A DNA stretch of 64,000 nt from an uncultured Pseudohongiella sp. (lineage in GTDB: Bacteria > Pseudomonadota > Gammaproteobacteria > Pseudomonadales > Pseudohongiellaceae), in assembly GCA_964343795.1 (NCBI GenBank), contig CAYFKD010000003.1, positions 260,669-324,668 of the forward strand. Reading direction: 5' to 3'. Position numbers and translations under genes: made by a program. Shown here one piece after another: positions 1-53,563 of the stretch (position 1 is the stretch's first letter; the number at the start of each line of letters is the position of its first letter). The notes under the pieces were generated by a model that had not been told where the DNA came from, made no database searches, and was given only the letters and a program-made list of their open reading frames with translations.

Positions 1-672
1 CAGAACCAGGCCGGCTCATCCAATGCGGCACCGGCCCGGGTTTTTATCCCATTTACTTCTTCCAAGACCCGTTTCGGTGAAACCCTGACCCGGCAGACCG
101 CCGGCGGCATGGAATCGGAGACCGTGGAACTGCACGAGGCCATCATCCAGATCGATGACCAGGAGATGGTGATCGAGGTGGGGGAGATCATCGAGCAGAT
201 GCTGGGCCGCCGCCACCGCGGCGAGGAAGACTATACCGTGGAAATACCCCTGGCCCTGCTCAGGCAGGCCGAGGCCAGCGCGTTGAGGGACCAGATTGTC
301 GCCGGCGCCATCGCCGGCATTTCCCTGCTGGTGGGTGGTATTGGCATCATGAACATCATGCTGGCCAGTGTTACCGAACGCACGCGGGAGATTGGCATTC
401 GCCGCGCCCTGGGCGCCAAGAAGCGGGACATCATTGCGCAGTTCCTGGTGGAAGCCGTGATTCTTTCCGGGGTAGGGGGGCTAATTGGCGTCGTTCTCGG
501 GATTATCATTCCGTTCATTATTTCCACGTTCTGGGGCATGACGACTATAGTTACGCCGTTGGCCCCGATACTGGCGTTTTCAATCTCGGCAATGATTGGG
601 GTGATATTCGGGATATATCCGTCGATGCGTGCTGCTGATATGGATCCAGTGGAAGCTTTGAGGCATGAATAA
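1..672 (+). CDS. ABC transporter permease, MacB/FtsX family (C-terminal part; 5' end lies outside the window)
   Basis: Frame 1 is open from base 1, with no stop before the listed Met at 109. The translation shows the FtsX-type C-terminal TM bundle (GGIGIMNIMLASVTERTREIGIRRALGAKKRDI). Confidence 0.85.
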   Translation, partial: QNQAGSSNAAPARVFIPFTSSKTRFGETLTRQTAGGMESETVELHEAIIQIDDQEMVIEVGEIIEQMLGRRHRGEEDYTVEIPLALLRQAEASALRDQIVAGAIAGISLLVGGIGIMNIMLASVTERTREIGIRRALGAKKRDIIAQFLVEAVILSGVGGLIGVVLGIIIPFIISTFWGMTTIVTPLAPILAFSISAMIGVIFGIYPSMRAADMDPVEALRHE

Positions 673-823
673 TCTGGCTACTAGGTAATCGTAAGAGAAA
701 GTATTGATGGCATCCATGCCGCGGCAACCGTCTTCTTACCAGGGCCCAGCCTCGCCATCCCTGGCGAGTCGTTCGCCCCTGAGCGAGCAGTGCTCGCTCT
801 GGCCAACGGCCACCGGGGCTCAC
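673..823 (-). repeat. Structured GGA-hairpin element, copy X (same family as 32285-32415 and 32435-32565)
   Basis: The reverse complement shares the block CGAACGACTCGCCAnGGATGGCGAGGCTGGG (1 mismatch) with copy U1, plus the GTGAG start and two NNCA-KGGA-TGNN hairpins (751-768 and 709-720). Confidence 0.8.
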
Positions 824-850
824 CCAGTAGAAGCCCTTAGGCACGAATAA
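824..850 (+). repeat. Displaced duplicate of the last 8 codons plus stop of the MacB-like gene
   Basis: CCAGTAGAAGCCCTTAGGCACGAATAA here versus CCAGTGGAAGCTTTGAGGCATGAATAA at 646-672. There are five differences, all synonymous; both copies read PVEALRHE-stop. Confidence 0.85.
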
Positions 851-17938: not shown

Positions 17939-18030
17939 TTTGTGCCTTTTGTGCTTTTTGTGGTTATTCATGCGGTCTTGTGGAAACCACAAAAGTTTTA
18001 AATGGCCACAAAAAGCACAAAAGGCACAAA
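17939..18030. repeat. CACAAA-rich palindromic intergenic element, copy 1
   Basis: Perfect 25-bp inverted arms: TTTGTGCCTTTTGTGCTTTTTGTGG (17939-17963) and its reverse complement (18006-18030). An inner GTGG-aaa-CCAC hairpin lies between them. Confidence 0.9.
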
Positions 18031-32094: not shown

Positions 32095-32284
32095 AAGGAT
32101 AAGCTGAGTCTTTCTTCTATTAACCGGGTTAGCGGCACAATCACCTATATGCTTCAGTCCGCGGGCATGACCAACTCCCACCAAACCGCTATAATCTCGC
32201 CTCCAAAACCGGTGCCATAATCTATAATGGCGTGGAGGTTTTGGATCAGAGCCCTCGTTTCGCATCGATCCCGTAGCTCAGCTG

Positions 32285-32415
32285 GGTGAGGCTCGCGAAG
32301 TACGCAAAGCAAAGCTTTGCGCGAGCCGAACGACTCGCCATGGATGGCGAGGCTGGGGTAATTTAGGAGTGCTAATGTTGCGCCAGGGATGGCATGTAAG
32401 ATATCTATAGAATCA
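32285..32415 (+). repeat. Structured GGA-hairpin element, copy U1 (candidate CsrA/RsmA-binding RNA module or miniature insertion element)
   Basis: 131 nt, preceded by a decayed copy of tRNA-Arg positions 1-19 (32266-32284). Hairpins are CTCGCCA-TGGA-TGGCGAG (32333-32350) and GCCA-GGGA-TGGC (32381-32392). Confidence 0.8.
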
Positions 32416-32434
32416 CGCGCCCGTAGCTCAGCTG

Positions 32435-32565
32435 GGTGAGCATGAGCGCGATGGAAGCGATAGCTTCCAGCGAAATGCGAACGACCGGCCATGGATGGCC
32501 GGGCTGGTATTTAGAGAAGCACTGAAGTCGCGACAGGGATGTCAGGCAGGAAACTACAGAATCAC
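32435..32565 (+). repeat. Structured GGA-hairpin element, copy U2
   Basis: Exactly 150 bp after U1 and preceded by GCGCCCGTAGCTCAGCTGG (32416-32434, identical to the tRNA 5' end). Hairpins are CCGGCCA-TGGA-TGGCCGG (32484-32501) and GACA-GGGA-TGTC (32531-32542). Confidence 0.8.
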
Positions 32566-32642
32566 GCGCCCGTAGCTCAGCTGGATAGAGTAACTGGCTT
32601 CGAACCAGTTGGTCGGGAGTTCGAATCTCTCCGGGCGTGCCA
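32566..32642 (+). tRNA. tRNA-Arg (anticodon TCG)
   Basis: Hand-folded 77-nt cloverleaf: acceptor GCGCCCG/CGGGCGT, D arm GCTC/GAGT, anticodon stem ACTGG/CCAGT with loop CTTCGAA, T arm GGGAG-TTCGAAT-CTCTC, G73 and an encoded CCA. Confidence 0.9.
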
Positions 32643-32646
32643 AATG

Positions 32647-32675
32647 AAAAAGGGGAGCCAATGGCTCCCCTTTTT
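32647..32675 (+). terminator. Rho-independent terminator after tRNA-Arg
   Basis: AAAAGGGGAGCC-aa-GGCTCCCCTTTTT. Confidence 0.85.
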
Positions 32676-33069
32676 GTTTGGTATGGCTGGAGAATTGATT
32701 CGAACTCCAAAGTTCGACAAATTGCGTGAGCAATTTGGACGGCCGTAGGCCGCCCCGAAGGGGTGAGGAATTTGCGCCAACGCAAATTCTGAATCAATCT
32801 CTCCGGTGGAAGCCGAAGGCTTCCCGAACGGAGGCAGTGAAATGATCAAAGCCCCACTTAGCTAAGTTACTAGTTTATCAGTGTCCCCTGGATACTAGGC
32901 AGCGCAAGTTTGCCGCAATTTTTCCTAGTGATGTCAAATAATCCTCCAAGCTCTGGCCAGAAGTTATTGATGTAGAGGATAGTAGTTTCCAACGAGCGAA
33001 TAGTCATGTTAATCAAGATGACATGGCTAAAGGAAAAGTTTAGGGAAACTAACTTGGGGGAATGGATCT

Positions 33070-34260
33070 CTATAATTCAAGAAATGCCAGCTGCTTTTTA
33101 TTGAGCCTAGTAATATCTATGCCCGTTTTATTTAGTACATAAGATACAACGGAATCCCTGGTGTCTTTCATCATTTGTGACAACTTCTCAACATTTTCAC
33201 ATTCACTGTAAGTCAAAATGTAACTCTGTACAGTAGACTCGATGCGAGATAAGAATCGGGGGTACGTGATCCCTCTTCGTAGCAGATTATCGAAATCTTT
33301 ATAAGCTAACAGCTTTTCTTTGATTTTATTCGCCTGTGGAGTTGTGACCGTGAGACAATACTTCTTATTCTTTTTTCGCCGGCTAATCCCTTGCCCGAGA
33401 AACTCCGCAGTCTGTTCTGGAGTGTAGATTTTGGTCTTACTTCCATCTCCTAATGCGTGAATTTTTAGTTTCACTGACGCCAATAAGTCGGCACATGTAT
33501 CATGAATCAACTTGCAATCCTCTTCTGTTTTTGCGAAGGCTATTATGTCATCAGCATAGCGAATAATTTCGAACCCAGTAGACAGAAGCTCACTATCGAA
33601 ATCCCAAAGCAACAAATTAGCAAGGTATGGGGACAAAGGCATACCTTGCCTTAGGCCAACTCCATTTCGAATACCCATTGCTCGGATCTTCTTTCTATCT
33701 TCGAAAACACTCTGGTTTACCTCCGTATCAATAACGGCATCGAGAAGAGGGAACAATGACGATACCCTTAACTTCATCCGCAACTGCTCCTTGAGTACCT
33801 CGCGTGGAATCTTGTCGAAGAATGAAGAGATGTCAGCCTTGTAAACCCAGGGGTTATCATGTCGTTTCTTCACTGACGCTTTGAGAGCATCTTTTGCAGA
33901 CTTCCCGCGGATGAATCCATAACTGACAGGATTGTCGAAAGAATATTGACCATTACTTAGGAAGCGATACATTGCTCGTTGCACTAATCTATCGCGGATA
34001 AGAGGGATACAGATTAATCGCTCTGTACCTTCAGGTTTTGGAATAAAAACGGGCGTTAATGGACTGAACGTATAGCTGCCGCACCGGAGTAGCTTAGAGA
34101 TTTCTGAAATTTGAAGTTTCTTTGTTGCTTTAAATTCTGAAAGGGACATTCCACTAGAATCGTGAAATCCACGTACTCGAGTATTCGAGGCCCGGAACAT
34201 TTCCGCCCATTCGAATTCTAGAGAATCAATGGTTGAGAATTTCGAGAAAGCTGATGCCAA
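33070..34260 (-). CDS. Stand-alone reverse transcriptase (RT domain only; defence-associated or unclassified type)
   Basis: The 396-aa protein shows RT motifs 1-7: IPKPEGTERLICIP, RDRLVQRA, YGFIRGKS, KADISSFFDKI, LRQGMPLSPYLANLLL, RYADDIIAF, SKTKI, FLGQGI. The start is TTG, and there is no maturase or endonuclease domain. Confidence 0.85.
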   Translation of the reverse strand: MASAFSKFSTIDSLEFEWAEMFRASNTRVRGFHDSSGMSLSEFKATKKLQISEISKLLRCGSYTFSPLTPVFIPKPEGTERLICIPLIRDRLVQRAMYRFLSNGQYSFDNPVSYGFIRGKSAKDALKASVKKRHDNPWVYKADISSFFDKIPREVLKEQLRMKLRVSSLFPLLDAVIDTEVNQSVFEDRKKIRAMGIRNGVGLRQGMPLSPYLANLLLWDFDSELLSTGFEIIRYADDIIAFAKTEEDCKLIHDTCADLLASVKLKIHALGDGSKTKIYTPEQTAEFLGQGISRRKKNKKYCLTVTTPQANKIKEKLLAYKDFDNLLRRGITYPRFLSRIESTVQSYILTYSECENVEKLSQMMKDTRDSVVSYVLNKTGIDITRLNKKQLAFLEL

Positions 34261-34324
34261 TAGGAGTATTTCCTTTACTCATCGAAGCAACTAAGCCCCA
34301 GTTCGATGAGATTTATTGAACTGG

Positions 34325-34471
34325 CACCAAACGCGAAAACAGTACGCACTTCGTTATTCGCGTGACATCAATGGCGAACTTGCTGTAGCGAGAGCTCTCG
34401 CAATTTGGAACGCGCCAATGTTTAGGCTTTCTCGCAACCCGCGAAACTGCACATTGGTATGCGAAATACAC
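34325..34471. repeat. Direct repeat R, copy A (RT-proximal)
   Basis: Identical base-for-base to 34724-34870 (compared by hand). Confidence 0.95.
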
Positions 34472-34723
34472 GGCGCGATTCCAAATGAGAATGCTTATCA
34501 CTCGTATCAAGCTAAGACCGAAATCTCTCATGGCTAGAAGTACCTTAGGACTAAAGCCGCAGAGCATGGCTACGGTGCGTCGAAATTTGACTACTACCTC
34601 GACGAGCTTGACCAGCCGGCCAGCGCACTCCGATACCGCGGCTCCGCAGTCGATCGCGTGAAAGCCGTTGCCGGCCACCCTTGCTTCTGGGGCGAATGAC
34701 CGGACATCGACGCGTAACAAGAC

Positions 34724-34870
34724 CACCAAACGCGAAAACAGTACGCACTTCGTTATTCGCGTGACATCAATGGCGAACTTGCTGTAGCGAGAGCTCTCGC
34801 AATTTGGAACGCGCCAATGTTTAGGCTTTCTCGCAACCCGCGAAACTGCACATTGGTATGCGAAATACAC
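34724..34870. repeat. Direct repeat R, copy B (RT-distal)
   Basis: 147-bp perfect copy. The offset is 399 bp, which equals 133 codons. Confidence 0.95.
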
Positions 34871-34878
34871 CGACAATC

Positions 34879-34909
34879 ATTATGTAAGGCCTGGCCTAAA
34901 GATTTTCAA
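34879..34909 (-). promoter_or_regulatory. Putative sigma70 promoter driving the R-U-R RNA and the RT gene
   Basis: On the minus strand the sequence reads TTGAAA, 19 nt, CATAAT. The predicted start near 34872 is about 2 nt upstream of repeat B. Confidence 0.3.
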
Positions 34910-35088
34910 GGGTTTCTAACTATTCGAATGACTACATAGGATTGTTGGTCAATTATCGACCAGCCGTCAAGAACAGGAGTTCACGGCTAATGGCGACGAG
35001 AATTTTTCTGAAGTTTGGATAGTGTAGTAGCAGTTGTACTCAGCCCAACTCGATGTAGGCAATTTTGACTCAATTCTAGATTTAACCA

Positions 35089-35170
35089 AGGTCGCAAGTC
35101 ATTGATATCTATATAACTGCAATTTTTTAGAGCGAGATTCGAATCTTAGCAACCGAGATTGGACGGCCGT
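35089..35170. repeat. Internal module junction: degenerate right-end plus tRNA T-arm remnant plus left-end motif
   Basis: GGTCGCAAGTCATTGATATCTATATAACTGCAATTTT resembles 36946-36987. GAGATTCGAATCT is a T-arm remnant. AGCAACCGAGATTGGACGGCCGT resembles 32729-32746. Confidence 0.65.
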
Positions 35171-35521
35171 TCAATATTCGAATGGTTTCAGTGAATTGCA
35201 GTGGAAGCTGAAAAGCACTGATTCAAAATCTAGTAGAAAATATTTCTAGAAGGCTATGCAGGGGTCTAAAAAGATAAGTCGTGGCCAAGCTGGCCAAGAA
35301 GGATTATCGCTTAGAAGCAAGTATTCACATTCCTTTAGAATCCGGAAAATCTCTAGTTGGGATTTTTCCGAAAGATGCGCCTTGCCCACTAAAATAGTGG
35401 GAATTGTCCTACATACACGAGTTTCGTGGGGGTGTAATGTTCGTCTCCTTGGTGGTTGATTCCAAGATATTTATGGGTCCGCGAGAATCTTGTTTAGACT
35501 GGACGATTAAGGAGAACTCAA

Positions 35522-36127
35522 TTGAATTATAGAAGATGGCTTACATCAGTATTTGCTCTATTAGCATTTATAAATCCTACAATTAGCTTCGCACAGTGCT
35601 CGGTAAATCCATTGTCGTGGTTATGGTGGTCAAATCTAGGGGATGCAGAAGATCTAACTTCTGGCCCGGGCTCTTACCCTCAAACCTATACCTACTGGAT
35701 ACAATCGGGGGCAACCACATACTTAAATACGGACCTGGATGCTGGTTTAGGGCCTAATGGAGAAGGCGAAGTTACTTTCTTCAACACTGCAATGGGGCAG
35801 AATGGACCATTTGGATCGACAGAAGCTTGGTCCACTAGTGAAACGTGCCATGTCTGGATAGGTGGAAGAACCTACGATTCGGGGAATTGTAATACTACTA
35901 CCCAACGACCGATAAAAGGTCAGATTAGGTTAAATGATTCAATTCTTGCGAATCCATCATACATAGCTCTTGGGGCTCCTATGACAACGATTCAACATGA
36001 AACAGGGCACATATTCGGAATGGGACATAATGATTCCTGCACTTCATTTATGAAAACGAGCTTCGTGGCTGGATTGCCTTCAAGTTTGCAATTCTGGGAA
36101 GTTATTTGGATTAATGCAAATTATTAA
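35522..36127 (+). CDS. Secreted metzincin-like zinc metalloprotease
   Basis: Signal peptide and the HETGHIFGMGH motif (HExxHxxGxxH), with a downstream Met (SFM). The start is TTG after AAGGAG. Confidence 0.65.
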   Translation: MNYRRWLTSVFALLAFINPTISFAQCSVNPLSWLWWSNLGDAEDLTSGPGSYPQTYTYWIQSGATTYLNTDLDAGLGPNGEGEVTFFNTAMGQNGPFGSTEAWSTSETCHVWIGGRTYDSGNCNTTTQRPIKGQIRLNDSILANPSYIALGAPMTTIQHETGHIFGMGHNDSCTSFMKTSFVAGLPSSLQFWEVIWINANY

Positions 36128-36152
36128 TACTCAAATAAATAAGGGGAGAATT

Positions 36153-36812
36153 ATGAAATCATATATTTTCGTGCTAGTTCTACTGGTGCCTTTAGGGGCC
36201 GAAGTAAATCCTCTATATGCTCAAGGCATATCAGCTGACCAATTCATTTACTACATGGATTATTCAGCAGAAAACGGATGGATACCGGAGAGTATAGAAA
36301 CTATGGTGTCTACATCTCATATTATTGTGAAAGGCAGATTTGGCAATTTGATTAGTAATCAACCCTTTTGGGGTTATGGCGAATCTCGCGAGTCTTTTAT
36401 AGAAAAGTTAAATATATCGGATGAAGAAGCTGATCGCATGGCTATTCCTTTGAGTGAGTATGAAATAGTTATTGACGAGGTAGTTTTTGGAGACATTAAA
36501 TCCGATAAAATTGTCTACAGAGTCTTTGAGAGCTACCCTTCAGAAGAAGAAGAGCTTGATCAAAAGAAGTCTATTGAAAGACTTTTTTTCCTCAGACTGA
36601 ATGAGGATGGAGAAACATACTCGAGTATTGGGCAACCGTTTATTTTGGACAATATAGACGGTGAGTATAGCTTTTTAGCTCGTGGAAGATCGATAACTGA
36701 TACTTCTAGAAAGACTTTGCCATTTGTTGAAAGTATGCAGAAAGTCGCTTTTGAGCAGGCAATAAAACAAGAGGTTGCGAGACAAATGGCAGAAATCGGG
36801 CGAGCAAATTAA
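36153..36812 (+). CDS. Hypothetical secreted protein (partner of the metzincin)
   Basis: I take the start at MKSYIFVLVLL after AAGGGGAG. There is a signal peptide but no family I recognise. Confidence 0.6.
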   Translation: MKSYIFVLVLLVPLGAEVNPLYAQGISADQFIYYMDYSAENGWIPESIETMVSTSHIIVKGRFGNLISNQPFWGYGESRESFIEKLNISDEEADRMAIPLSEYEIVIDEVVFGDIKSDKIVYRVFESYPSEEEELDQKKSIERLFFLRLNEDGETYSSIGQPFILDNIDGEYSFLARGRSITDTSRKTLPFVESMQKVAFEQAIKQEVARQMAEIGRAN

Positions 36813-36992
36813 CATCCAATAAACAACGCTAAGAAGAAGCCATGCCGAATTGTTCACACTCTTGGTTCGAGTATCAATATGTAACAAAAAACCACTCTTT
36901 ATTGCTCATTGGAGATACCTATGAGTTAATTCTCAAATCAACCGAGATCGCAAATCATTGATATTCTAATAGCTGTAATTTTGTGGATACTC

Positions 36993-37070
36993 CTTCGAAC
37001 CAGTTGATCGGGAATTCGAATGTCTCCGGGCGTGCGAAACAAAAAGGGGAGCCAATGGCTCCCCTTTTTT
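36993..37070 (+). repeat. attR-like displaced 3' half of tRNA-Arg plus terminator copy
   Basis: Aligns with 32598-32675 with about five substitutions and one 1-nt indel, and it lacks CCA. Confidence 0.85.
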
Positions 37071-39890: not shown

Positions 39891-39891
39891 T

Positions 39892-39963
39892 AAAAAGGGG
39901 ACGGAGGGATTTATTTTTGATCAATCAGCACTGATCAATAATAAATCCCTCCGTCCCCTTTTT
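39892..39963. terminator. Long bidirectional terminator palindrome
   Basis: Perfect 24-bp arms AAAAAGGGGACGGAGGGATTTATT (39892-39915) and their reverse complement (39940-39963). The arms include A- and T-runs, and the element lies between convergent genes. Confidence 0.8.
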
Positions 39964-40852
39964 AGTCCGCGATCATCGGCGCGCGCTTACTGCCCGCCTT
40001 CTTCGCTTCCGCCTGGGTTCGGCGCCGTTCTTCGCCCAGTTGAGCCAGGTGATCCCGGTTGTTGTCATCAACCCGGGCATAGGCATCGCGCCAACTTTCG
40101 TCATCGCTCCATATATAAGGAAGCCGTTTAACGGTTTTTGGACCCTTCGCTTCTTCGAAGAGCTGCAAGGCCCGGCGGGCTATGTCCAGTTGCATGGCCT
40201 CGTCCCAGGGTTTGCCACTGGGGTTGCCAAGGGGGAAATCCAGGTGCAGGTAGCGGGGCACGCCACAGTACTCAACAATATCCAAGGCGGAACCGTTAAT
40301 CACCGTCGGCATGCCGTTGGCTTCCAGGTGGCGGGCGACCAGACTCACGGTCTGGTGACAGACAGGTCACAAGGGCACCAGCAGGGCAATATCTGCTTTG
40401 TCCTCCCGGCAGCGCTGGAGTATCTCCGGTGCATCTTCTTTCACGGTGGCGCGCTGGCTGTACTCGGTAGGAACGGAATGGAAGCGGGGAGCGACATTGC
40501 CAAGCATTCCTTCTTCCACCAGTTGATTCAGTTGGCGCAGGGGCAGGAAGGAATTCACGTCCCGGGTGTGGGTGGCTTCCTTGTCCCAGGACAGCTCATC
40601 GGTATACATGGATGCCGGTATGGGAGAGACTGGCGTGGAATAAACGCGTCGCTCCGCATGCCCTTGGGGAGTATCGGGCATGGCGGTGGTGATTACGACG
40701 AGTCTGGATTCGGCTACGGGCTTGTCCAGCGGCTGAAACGGGGTCTCATCGAAATGGGCCCACTGGTAATCCACGGTATAACCCTGGGCGCGGTAATAAT
40801 CCCGGGTCCGTTCCATGTAGGGCACATCGTAGGCGTTGGTCATATTCAGCAA
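39962..40852 (-). CDS. GrdB-family (glycine/sarcosine/betaine reductase component B-like) protein with in-frame TGA, candidate selenoprotein
   Basis: The two listed ORFs (40367-40852 and 39962-40348) are in the same frame and are separated only by a TGA at 40367-40369. Read-through gives LLVPL-U-PVCHQTVSLVARH. Confidence 0.7.
40338..40356 (-). other. SECIS-like hairpin
   Basis: The mRNA reads ACCAGAC-CGUGA-GUCUGGU. The stem starts 10 nt after the UGA and the apical loop contains a G. Confidence 0.55.
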
Positions 40853-46209: not shown

Positions 46210-46246
46210 GGCGGTATTGTAACCGGGCAGATTGTTTCGGCCTCAT

Positions 46247-46402
46247 TTTTTGTGACCTTTGTGCCTTTTTGTGGCCATCAAAGTAATGCTGAAGGTCGCC
46301 ACAATAAAGGTAAAAAGCAGCTAGCTAGTGGGAAATAATCCCTGTGGTGGCCATCGTAAGCCGTCGGGGATTGGCCACAAAAAGGCACAAAGGTCACTAA
46401 AA
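46247..46402. repeat. CACAAA-rich palindromic intergenic element, copy 2
   Basis: Arms TTTTGTGACCTTTGTGCCTTTTTGTGGCC (46247-46276) and GGCCACAAAAAGGCACAAAGGTCACTAAAA (46373-46402), with one mismatch between them. Confidence 0.85.
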
Positions 46403-46504
46403 CTTAAACTGCAACACTACGGAATTTTCCACTGATGTCGTAGAAGCTCGCAAAGCAAGCTAAAATGCCGGGCCTGATCGCAGTGAATTCAGGCAGGCAA
46501 GTGC

Positions 46505-53469: not shown

Positions 53470-53499
53470 TCGGAGCTTTCATCCACAAGATTATTTAAT

Positions 53500-53563
53500 G
53501 GCCACAAAAAGGCACATATTTCACAAAGGCGAGATTTTGTATTCTTTTGTGCATTTTTGTGGC
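53500..53563. repeat. CACAAA-rich palindromic intergenic element, copy 3 (arms in the opposite arrangement)
   Basis: GGCCACAAAAAGGCACA ... TGTGCATTTTTGTGGC. Confidence 0.75.

Follow-up and report, generated by a model that had tools for sequence, protein, structure and literature searches.

Gene-end-replacing attachment sites are found in phage 21 at icd and in P4-like islands at the 3′ ends of tRNA genes. In the integrative elements e14 and Rac, at icd and ttcA, respectively, the gene is rebuilt by an element-borne copy with mostly silent differences (PMC6379469). In the IS91 family, subterminal palindromes mark the ori end, which adjoins a flank oligonucleotide that it requires; these elements make no target duplication, pass through single-stranded DNA (ssDNA) intermediates, and often carry adjacent DNA along, and fragments of the IS801 ori end down to 229 nt move in trans in Pseudomonas (PMC13181058, PMC3189936). 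In the IS607 family, GG is the sole fixed feature of target and crossover, again without a target duplication (PMC6188088). Two further processes are comparable: homology-facilitated illegitimate recombination, in which homology anchors one side while the opposite joint forms without any (PMC3240628), and sequential gene-end displacement, as in the effector–immunity arrays of type VI secretion systems and the orphan tips of Rhs and contact-dependent inhibition loci, in which the old end is orphaned beside the new (PMC3240628, PMC5361080). The present study concerns a short, structured element, here called E, and the duplicated end of a macB-like gene beside it, in a 64,000-nt stretch of DNA (the window) from an uncultured Pseudohongiella sp. 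(contig CAYFKD010000003.1, positions 260,669 to 324,668). Our analyses favor, as a reasonably probable model, that E is mobile, that its 5′ end is joined to recipient DNA after GG, that its 3′ side is resolved by homology, and that it brings along a foreign arm from which the gene is rebuilt.

At the start of the window, the tail of a MacB-like open reading frame (ORF), consisting of the last eight codons and the stop (646-672, CCAGTGGAAGCTTTGAGGCATGAATAA), is followed after exactly 151 nt (673-823) by a second 27-nt macB tail (824-850, CCAGTAGAAGCCCTTAGGCACGAATAA). Both encode PVEALRHE-stop, and the five nucleotide differences between them fall in four codons (GTG/GTA, GCT/GCC, TTG/CTT, CAT/CAC) and are all synonymous. 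This arrangement had been described in an earlier reading made from the letters alone (the sequence-only reading), and our direct read of the DNA agrees with it to the base. The probability of a 22/27 match arising by chance in any of ~300 registers downstream of the element is ~8e-7. The 646-672 copy is unbroken with the body of macB, which ends ...GATCCAGTGGAAGCTTTGAGGCATGAATAA in this version, and the 824-850 copy is unbroken with the upstream region of the adjacent amidase gene. Because the two copies lie in different frames (646 in frame 1, 824 in frame 2), read-through from macB into the second copy is excluded. The minus strand of 673-823 opens with GTGAG, with CTGG directly before it, and the junction in the window, CTGG|ATCC, lies inside macB codons 8-9 from the end. 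Further occurrences of CTGGGTGAG in the window (10566, 15560, and 59565) are ordinary coding sequence, and the 64-kb window holds no second macB tail elsewhere.

The locus is laid out as follows, where L numbers denote loci from other genomes and metagenome contigs and GC3 is the G+C content of third codon positions.
1..672, plus strand: 3′ part of the MacB/FtsX-type ABC permease gene, with the ORF intact to its stop at 670-672
460..645, plus strand: possible imported macB tract prolonging the arm, tentative and with an approximate left boundary, from the drop in GC3
646..672, plus strand: working copy of the macB tail (X), which would be element-borne, i.e., foreign, with polarity taken from L057 and from GC3 in L179, L107, and L206
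673..708, minus strand: variable tail of E, from hairpin 3 to the arm, unconserved between copies
709..823, minus strand: E core, macB copy, from motifs, fold, and covariance model
709-720, minus strand: hairpin 3 (GGCATGGATGCC), from motif coordinates
745-751, minus strand: GGCTGG, from motif coordinates
751-768, minus strand: hairpin 2 (CTCGCCAGGGATGGCGAG), from motif coordinates
768-775, minus strand: CGAACGAC, from motif coordinates
781-814, minus strand: two inner hairpins, from motif coordinates
815-823 pairing with 771-779, minus strand: stem P1, from motif coordinates
819-823, minus strand: GTGAG, the 5′ end of E
824..850, plus strand: displaced copy of the macB tail (X′), presumably the native tail, now orphan, by analogy with L057
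851..906, no strand: native macB–amidase spacer, with the amidase gene starting at 907

In the syntenic locus L125 (ABC–macB–amidase–FNR–SDF), whose macB orthologue carries the Pfam domains MacB_PCD and FtsX, there is a single macB tail, a 27-nt spacer, the amidase start, and no element. The 824-850 segment is therefore not a remnant of a longer ancestral gene, a possibility that had been raised alongside the duplication. The last 150 macB residues are 90-100% identical in amino acids in the orthologue comparison. L125 represents a distant empty site, too diverged to tell which of the two tails in the window is native; among 5.8 billion proteins searched for close relatives of the organism, the best amidase homologs are only ~65% identical. 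A metagenome scan for a donor lineage with the exact working tail, CCAGTGGAAGCTTTGAGGCATGAA, gave no matches.

The macB-linked copy of E is one of three in the window, the other two being tandem units before tRNA-Arg(TCG) at 32566-32642. A degenerate core pattern matches the 64-kb window exactly three times, with 0 matches expected, and a covariance model of 60 family members finds the same three copies with E-values of 4e-26 to 5e-28 and nothing else below 2. At the macB copy, the covariance match spans 698-826 (97 bits) and the fold has z = -3.3, and the first tRNA-linked unit has, at 32327-32357, a 97% complement of the 31 nt at 745-775. The complementary block, the core pattern, and the covariance model together bear out the proposal that a third copy of the tRNA-linked units lies at macB. 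The intact gene lies on the 3′ side of the element at both window loci, and CTGG stands immediately before GTGAG at both, as the sequence-only reading had stated.

Beyond the window, loci were collected by core-pattern scans of one genome per species and of metagenome contigs, and all family figures given here refer to the matches listed. The genomes gave at least 119 loci and the metagenome contigs at least 120, with at least 276 copies in all, nearly all in Gammaproteobacteria; the carriers include Pseudohongiella, other Pseudomonadales, Pseudomonas citronellolis, Xanthomonadaceae, Steroidobacter metagenome-assembled genomes (MAGs), Methylolobus, and Aliiglaciecola. Among the carrier genomes are OX638323.1, OZ244717.1, Aliiglaciecola litoralis JCM 15896, and Peristeroidobacter agariperforans KA5-B. 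The aligned copies begin with an invariant GTGAG. The hairpin behind it varies and is often compound; CGAACGAC, again invariant, comes next and leads to hairpin 2, whose loop reads CANGGATG. GGCTGG and a linker then connect to hairpin 3 (loop CAKGGAYG), after which the tail is unconserved. The core is ~115 nt, and E with its arm amounts to 130-250 nt of noncoding DNA. RNAalifold pairs GUGAG with CGAAC as G-C, U-A, tandem G.A/A.G, and G-C, and four more covarying pairs prolong the stem. Over 60 copies, 95% of the cells are paired, compared with 71% in shuffled alignments and 30-38% when the partners are slid, the covariation score is 0.53 vs 0.11 in shuffles, and stems P1 and P2 covary strongly. 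G.U pairs outnumber A.C pairs by ~11 to 3 in a hand tally of pair types, and the GA/AG tandem occurs on one strand only; the E-sense strand is therefore the one that folds. Both hairpin loops read CAKGGAYG across the 60 aligned copies, and hairpin 3 retains this motif even though the search pattern left it free.

Among the copies listed, the base at position -2 before GTGAG is G in 114/115 and that at -1 is G in 113/115, position -3 is A or T in 90/115, and the base that follows the second repeat copy is A in 21/40 cases, giving a preferred site of WGG|A. Thus, E has one sharply defined end (5′, G|GTGAG), and its 3′ end is undefined. The sequence flanking the 5′ end recurs downstream of hairpin 3 in 48 of the 215 evaluable copies listed (~22%) and in none of the shuffled-flank controls, with repeats of 11 to at least 80 nt. 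The wider sample also upholds the earlier view of E as a conserved structured core with an exchangeable arm that mimics its target; the arms correspond to tRNA 5′ parts and 3′ ends, gene starts and ends, a CRISPR repeat, and terminators.

E prefers structured targets. Co-oriented tRNA 5′ parts are cut in the D-loop or before the T-stem (the window, L101 twice, L096, L006, L165, and L211), anti-oriented tRNA 3′ ends are cut at the T-loop (L002, L004, L027, L045, L063, L066, and L228), and wherever a listed tRNA locus has the repeat, the intact gene is found 3′ of E. Terminator and REP-like hairpins are targets in L114, L213, and L028, and E’s own hairpins are targets in L044, L097, and L103, yielding head-to-tail arrays. 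Protein genes are entered at their starts (glutathione S-transferase [GST], a zinc-ribbon gene, and an aldo-keto reductase) or at their ends (macB, murA, and an amidohydrolase). In L179 (metagenome contig Ga0126373_10098833, E-orientation 1800-2100), E lies 24 codons ahead of the murA stop, with the junction TG|GTGAG rather than GG, and the arm re-encodes all 24 murA residues with 14 synonymous changes. In Methylolobus aquaticus FWC3 (L052, 3390-4560), at least two E units sit in the first repeat of a CRISPR array whose 29-nt repeat (CGGTTCATCCCCACGGGCGTGGGG|AACGG) recurs with a 61-nt period; the 5′ part of that repeat is duplicated, and the array is therefore still intact. At nrdJb in P. citronellolis, P. 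otitidis, and Pseudomonas sp. No.21 (L059, L126-L140), E starts in the last codons, TGT GG|G TGA G, and since E’s own TGA is the nrdJb stop codon, a repeat is unnecessary there. Arrays of one to five units, varying between strains, are present at nrdJb in all clade members examined; all strains and sister species examined for a filled and empty pair are filled. Later units of these arrays lack GGGTGAG, pointing to local tandem expansion.

Of two further comparisons, L008 vs L115 and L028 vs L086, one presents an empty site and the other a differently flanked site, but their intergenic DNA is too diverged for base-exact boundaries. In some Pseudomonadales MAGs (L028 4180-4600, also L011, L012, L024, L032, and L089), E occupies the loop of a palindromic repeat with ~33-nt arms (GTCGCTGTCGGGAGGCGGAGGGTTCAGCGGGCG ... 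reverse complement), and the whole composite is itself repeated and may be a REPIN-like carrier of E. At L043 (1860-2350), E lies in a segment of ~230 nt flanked by 23 nt repeated from the 3′ end of a co-oriented tRNA-Ser that lies upstream, a layout that resembles a classical att duplication, unlike the usual arm of E.

Six protein-coding cases allow the two repeat copies to be compared codon by codon; the count for L206 was re-framed by hand.
macB (window): 4 synonymous codons, 0 amino-acid-changing
GST (L057): 6 synonymous codons, 0 amino-acid-changing
Zn-ribbon gene (L107): 4 synonymous codons, 1 amino-acid-changing
murA (L179): 14 synonymous codons, 0 amino-acid-changing
Amidohydrolase (L206): 8 synonymous codons, 1 amino-acid-changing
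Aldo-keto reductase (L217): 9 synonymous codons, 4 amino-acid-changing

Pooled, the differences are synonymous in 45 codons and amino-acid-changing in 6. The expected synonymous share is ~23% for random substitutions and ~40% if the working copy is free at silent sites while the orphan decays, and under the latter model 45/51 has P = 1e-12. A duplication in place with later drift is therefore excluded, and the earlier remark that a purely synonymous pattern is not that of a decaying target-site duplication now extends from one locus to six. Between orphan and working copies there are 70 changes, 42 transitions and 28 transversions. Deaminase-like local hypermutation of the working copy is ruled out by the 28 transversions, and a diversity-generating retroelement, whose changes would be confined to adenines, by the occurrence of all substitution classes. 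From orphan to arm, GC>AT changes outnumber AT>GC changes by 39 to 16, and the arms of L179, L107, L206, and L057 are consistently poorer in third-position G+C than the genes of their hosts. This low GC3 suggests either donors of lower G+C content or a time of relaxed selection on codons during the arm’s passage with the element.

Which copy is foreign can be read directly at L057, for which alone empty-site relatives (L141 to L144) are available. The GST proteins of these relatives are 93%, 86%, and 81% identical to that of L057 in amino acids, and the loci have a common decarboxylase–DinB_2–GST–cupin synteny, with no E and with 23-34 nt between DinB_2 and GST. The L057 orphan is unbroken with DinB_2 and reproduces the relatives’ native 5′ untranslated region (UTR) and codons (GGAGATCCAC.CATGATGAAGCTTTATTA...); the working copy does not. 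Past the GG junction, L057 reads CTCCTCATATTCTCTTAGAGGAG. Within the next 23 nt it departs from the relatives at eight positions, each time synonymously, and over this stretch L141 and L142 are identical (CCCCGCACATCCTGCTGGAAGAG) and L143 differs from them at two positions. Given a background divergence of 10.7% between L057 and its closest relative, 8/23 has P = 2e-3, and beyond the 23 nt the sequence is again of the native type. In L057, the orphan is native and the working copy foreign: E entered with ~75 nt of homologous DNA from a different lineage, spanning the target site. Its left junction puts E’s first base on native ...CCATGG, and its right junction is a homologous exchange inside the gene. 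Because the foreign tract runs 23 nt past the repeat, a simple two-ended insertion at GG, of a circle or of an excised segment, is excluded. The sequence-only reading had proposed that a replacement gene end derived from another host arrives with the element, in an attP-like manner or as a recombinational import. The foreign working copy in L057 sustains the replacement itself. A strict attP-like, two-ended exchange inside the repeat is not supported, given the 23 nt beyond the repeat, the lack of a linked integrase, and GG as the only fixed feature, and a recombinational import fits the 3′ side of E better.

Third-position composition agrees with this polarity at three further loci, where the orphan is host-like and the arm is not.
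murA (L179): host GC3 0.91, orphan 0.79, arm 0.46
L107: host GC3 0.84, orphan 0.88, arm 0.60
L206: host GC3 0.93, orphan 0.80, arm 0.67

At L206, the 30 codons adjacent to the arm have a GC3 of 0.70. In the window, the first 154 codons of macB have a GC3 of 0.80 and the last 70 one of 0.56 (Fisher p = 3e-4), a drop absent from the orthologs in L125 and L123, which would fit an imported tract of ~200 nt. By analogy with L057 and from this shift, we infer that 824-850 is the native macB tail and that 646-672 came in with E; the databases hold no close relative of the organism, and the polarity in the window is accordingly drawn from these two sources. The stretch at 673-708 takes the place that linkers with ribosome-binding sites (RBSs) and promoters have in L057, L107, and the tRNA units; it probably derives from the intergenic region that follows macB in the donor.

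The second site in the window carries the element twice.
32270-32285, plus strand: orphan tRNA 5′ fragment, 16 nt in common with the tRNA
32286-32404, plus strand: E1, sister copy at tRNA-Arg(TCG)
32405-32435, plus strand: arm 1, following E1
32436-32553, plus strand: E2, sister copy at tRNA-Arg(TCG)
32554-32584, plus strand: arm 2, which supplies the 5′ 19 nt of the working tRNA (32566-32642)

Arms 1 and 2 are identical at 30/31 positions and E1 and E2 differ throughout hairpin 1, which suggests that the array E–arm–E–arm results from two separate events at one site. The same stacked layout occurs at a protein gene in L217.

The tRNA-Arg gene has been struck on both flanks, on its 5′ side by E and on its 3′ side by a classical island. 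This 4.4-kb island (32643-37070) lies in the 3′ half of the gene between imperfect repeats of 78 nt (32598-32675 and 36993-37070), and it carries two perfect 147-nt repeats (34325-34471 and 34724-34870) and, on the minus strand at 33070-34260, a defence-type reverse transcriptase (PADLOC RT/UG17-like).

In the mechanism that we propose, E would travel with whatever adjoins its downstream side in the donor, so that, from a donor copy beside a gene, a downstream stretch would come along as an arm with homology to the recipient’s version of that gene. The travelling form would be linear and probably single-stranded, running from G|GTGAG into the donor flank. Integration would be polar: a trans-acting nicking and joining enzyme would link the start of E to a recipient 3′ end right after GG (preferably WGG|A), inside the region paired with the arm, and the 3′ side would be settled by homologous exchange further inside the gene. 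The predicted product reads native flank and native X′, then E, linker, foreign X, and foreign Y1, then the native remainder of the gene, which would thus be rebuilt from element-borne sequence with its own end orphaned on the far side. In the window, 824-850 would be the original macB tail, and 646-672, perhaps with ~190 nt upstream, would have come with E from another lineage; the native allele before E would read macB ...GATATGGAT-CCAGTAGAAGCCCTTAGGCACGAATAA-agactgacc, with a GC3 of ~0.8 in the 70 codons before it. Successive events at a single site would give the tandem array at tRNA-Arg. For the enzyme, a rolling-circle transposase of the HUH type, acting as in one-ended transposition of IS91, is our leading guess by analogy, and a doubtful one.

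Taken together, these results indicate that E is probably a small, noncoding, nonautonomous mobile DNA element that is abundant in Gammaproteobacteria. It is considered nonautonomous because neither an enriched protein family within 3 kb nor a distant flank repeat came to light: when the 905 ORFs at most 3 kb from E at the 119 loci listed were clustered all against all, only array-internal ORFs and ABC proteins recurred, and a search for larger islands with E at one border and a flank repeat kilobases away found none. Several observations weigh against the proposed model. No detectable flank repeat accompanies ~78% of the copies listed. The 8-kb loci disclosed neither an enzyme for E nor an autonomous relative of it, and no vehicle between lineages was found either, since the core pattern is absent from 2.9 million viral contigs and blastn gave no match in PLSDB plasmids. 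The orientation of E relative to local GC skew is positive at 76/166 loci (p = 0.3, a noisy proxy), and a lagging-strand ssDNA transposon of the IS200/IS605 kind would have a bias. Arms diverged by ~20%, with anchors down to ~20-25 nt, are poor substrates for RecA-type exchange. The pattern at nrdJb is one of long vertical inheritance and local expansion, and much of the spread of the family may not be transposition. Within the window, X and X′ have the same GC3 (3/8 codons each), the GC3 shift in macB is only ~1.7 sd from neighboring genes, and 32270-32285 lacks the first three bases of the tRNA, contrary to a simple native-orphan reading, so that the model accounts for that locus incompletely.

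Five other explanations must be set against this evidence. An ordinary target-site duplication, in which a staggered cut duplicated 27 nt in place and the copies then drifted, has the X–E–X layout formally on its side, as well as many identical and sharply bounded repeats (L096 50/50, L101 28/28, L213 31/31, and L156 65/65), and duplications of variable length are known for target-primed insertion of LINE-type elements. However, the decay of an orphan, which here is fused to E or out of frame, should spare no codon position, whereas 45/51 differing codons are synonymous (P = 1e-12); moreover, the GC3 of the two copies differs in a consistent direction (L179, L107, and L206), and the atypical sequence of L057 reaches 23 nt beyond the repeat, where the DNA has at no time been duplicated. 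We regard this as the least credible of the five. Hardly more credible is a retroelement, in which a SINE-like E RNA would be reverse-transcribed at a nick after GG and a read-through transcript would supply the arm by 3′ transduction. The single precise end, the variable end, the flank repeats of variable length, and the well-defined folded strand all accord with it, and the tRNA-linked units have a reverse-transcriptase gene 430 nt away. That enzyme, however, is of the UG17-like defence type and belongs to the separate, unrelated island, which led us to reject it as the driver of E, and no reverse transcriptase is enriched near E among the 119 loci listed. Target-primed copying would in addition call for a precise end that is the 3′ end of the RNA, with an antisense template, whereas the constraints on E sit on the sense strand, and arms from other lineages would need RNA that passes between cells.

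The scar of an integrase-type element, whose attP mimicked the macB end and whose interior was later lost to leave attL, ~150 nt, and attR, is also improbable. Tandem accretion at tRNA genes is typical of integrases, and a real integrase-type island occupies the other end of the same tRNA-Arg. Gene-end replacement with mostly silent changes also has precedents in e14 at icd and Rac at ttcA (PMC6379469). Yet at least 276 copies with the same covarying core of ~115 nt are unlike any deletion scar, no copy has a flank repeat kilobases away and no recombinase is enriched nearby, the targets have only WGG|A in common, and the foreign tract of L057 crosses the would-be core. Slightly more room, though still little, is left for an arm drawn from a paralog in the same genome by ectopic conversion among members of the MacB, GST, or tRNA families. 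Motifs conserved among paralogs, such as DPVEALRHE at MacB/FtsX C termini, MKLYYSPGACS at GST N termini, and tRNA 5′ halves, fit such a source, as does the failure to find a vector between lineages. Against it, murA and the DinB-linked GST are single-copy in context, the arms of L057, L107, and the tRNA units reproduce gene-specific UTRs (RBS spacing and promoter -10), and no second macB tail exists within the 64-kb window. Comparably small is the chance that E is chiefly a host RNA module, a CsrA/RsmA-binding sponge or a cis leader or trailer, with spread and repeats as by-products of recombination. CANGGAYG is the textbook CsrA/RsmA site, and both E loops (CAKGGAYG) fit it; the motif of hairpin 3 is kept without a search requirement, Pseudomonas species have in common arrays of one to five units in the 3′ UTR of nrdJb, L057 and the tRNA loci have E in the 5′ leader, and the only Rfam near-matches are from the Rsm clan (RsmW and RsmV). 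These scores nevertheless fall far under the gathering thresholds (14 bits vs 52 and 11 vs 100), E-sense is antisense to the neighboring gene in many copies (macB, murA, and tRNA 3′ ends), and consensus scans found no consistent promoter or terminator. Above all, an RNA module leaves unexplained the fixed DNA junction after GG, the insertions in tRNA genes, CRISPR repeats, and murA, the occurrence in both orientations relative to genes, and the foreign arms.

A role in RNA regulation need not compete with the model of a mobile element with a foreign arm. Because its loops match the consensus and its arrays are conserved in the nrdJb 3′ UTR, E RNA might bind CsrA/RsmA, possibly alongside mobility, although on present grounds we would not expect it to; if so, the two CsrA-type hairpins may also tie genes beside E to the Csr/Rsm network. 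Hundreds of dispersed two-hairpin units of this type could constitute a large, unrecognized pool of Csr/Rsm binding sites, in lineages that include the Xanthomonadales/Steroidobacterales group. We know of no Csr sponge RNA in Xanthomonas.

Two other repeats in the window concern neither macB nor tRNA-Arg. A different short repeat family, on TGGCCACAAAAAGGCACAAAGG, forms direct and inverted pairs at 17939-18030, 46233-46416, and 53483-53527, and a 33-nt inverted repeat at 39891-39964 (TAAAAAGGGGACGGAGGGATTTATTTTTGATCA ...), 97% complementary with its arms 8 nt apart, is probably a bidirectional terminator.

If the model is true, E represents a natural, protein-free, homology-armed insertion cassette, for which the site is chosen by a replaceable arm and the interrupted gene is repaired. 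This would account for a selfish element inside murA, tRNA genes, and CRISPR repeats, it would reveal a hidden route by which short foreign coding stretches enter core genes, and it would explain orphan gene ends and tRNA fragments that annotation calls pseudogenes in gammaproteobacterial genomes. Genome engineering would then have an interest in an enzyme that joins a fixed DNA end after GG. Rfam 15 does not contain the family, and searches of the literature for an earlier description returned nothing relevant. With the macB copy, the tRNA units, and a Pseudomonas array as queries at gathering and permissive thresholds, Rfam 15 returned only tRNA and sub-threshold matches from the Rsm clan, the best being RsmW (14.3 bits, threshold 52, E-value 5) and RsmV (11.4 bits, threshold 100, E-value 0.8). 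It is tempting, if speculative, to see in E a new class of mobile DNA, with a structured “warhead” of ~115 nt, a target set by an exchangeable homologous arm, one end that an enzyme links, behind GG, to structured DNA, and the other end resolved by homology. Such an element could settle in essential genes while leaving them functional and shuttle short foreign gene segments between lineages.

Some known types are readily set aside. E is not a miniature inverted-repeat transposable element, as its ends are unrelated, without terminal inverted repeats, and its flank repeat of 11 to at least 80 nt is not of fixed length. Group II introns begin with 5′ GUGYG and have domains V/VI and an encoded protein; E has GUGAG only, ~115 nt, no ORF, and no Rfam intron match, and it was rejected as such an intron. 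Like the Csr/Rsm small RNAs (CsrB and RsmX/Y/Z/V/W), E presents ANGGA in hairpin loops, can occur in tandem, and is found in the same bacterial class; unlike them, it scores below all Rfam thresholds (clan CL00106), has two sites per unit, and is dispersed in hundreds of copies, in both gene orientations and inside genes.

The REP/BIME/REPIN and IS200/IS605-derived elements, which are mobilized in trans, share with E a short, noncoding, hairpin-forming, multicopy nature, a position next to a short specific sequence, and a preference for structured DNA. These elements, however, have no arms or flank repeats, and E consists of three different stems rather than an inverted pair; nor does E show a replication-strand bias (76/166, by the same noisy proxy) or a linked RAYT or TnpA. 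GG at the junction recalls the IS607 family, but those elements have two defined ends and TnpA, with or without TnpB, and undergo a two-ended exchange through a circle, whereas E has a variable 3′ end, no linked transposase, and the foreign tract of L057. Homology-facilitated illegitimate recombination and sequential gene-end displacement make their illegitimate joints at variable microhomologies, in contrast to E, whose donor-side joint is always at the same nucleotide.

The nearest precedents are one-ended transposition of IS91, homology-facilitated illegitimate recombination, and, for the outcome, gene-end replacement of the e14/icd type. With the IS91 family (IS91, IS801, and ISCR), E shares an architecture only: one defined end, subterminal palindromes, a flank oligonucleotide, and a variable far end. 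Its junction is WGG|GTGAG in 113/115 of the matches listed, rather than a CTTG/GTTC (CAAG/GAAC) tetranucleotide, no HUH transposase is linked to it within the 8-kb loci, and, where the far end of one-ended IS91 transposition stops at a pseudo-ter tetranucleotide, that of E seems to be resolved by homology and repeats the target. Compared with the gene-end-replacing integrative elements, E is minute (~115 nt), has no integrase, and enters many unrelated targets, including tRNA 5′ parts and D-loops; its repeat ranges from 11 to at least 80 nt with only GG fixed, and its foreign tract extends past the repeat (L057). As in those elements, the locus keeps its native end as a pseudo-copy on the far side, and repeated events produce tandem arrays. 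In L057, the copy brought by the element makes the target whole and the native one has been displaced; the same layout is found at macB, at murA, and at the tRNA genes.

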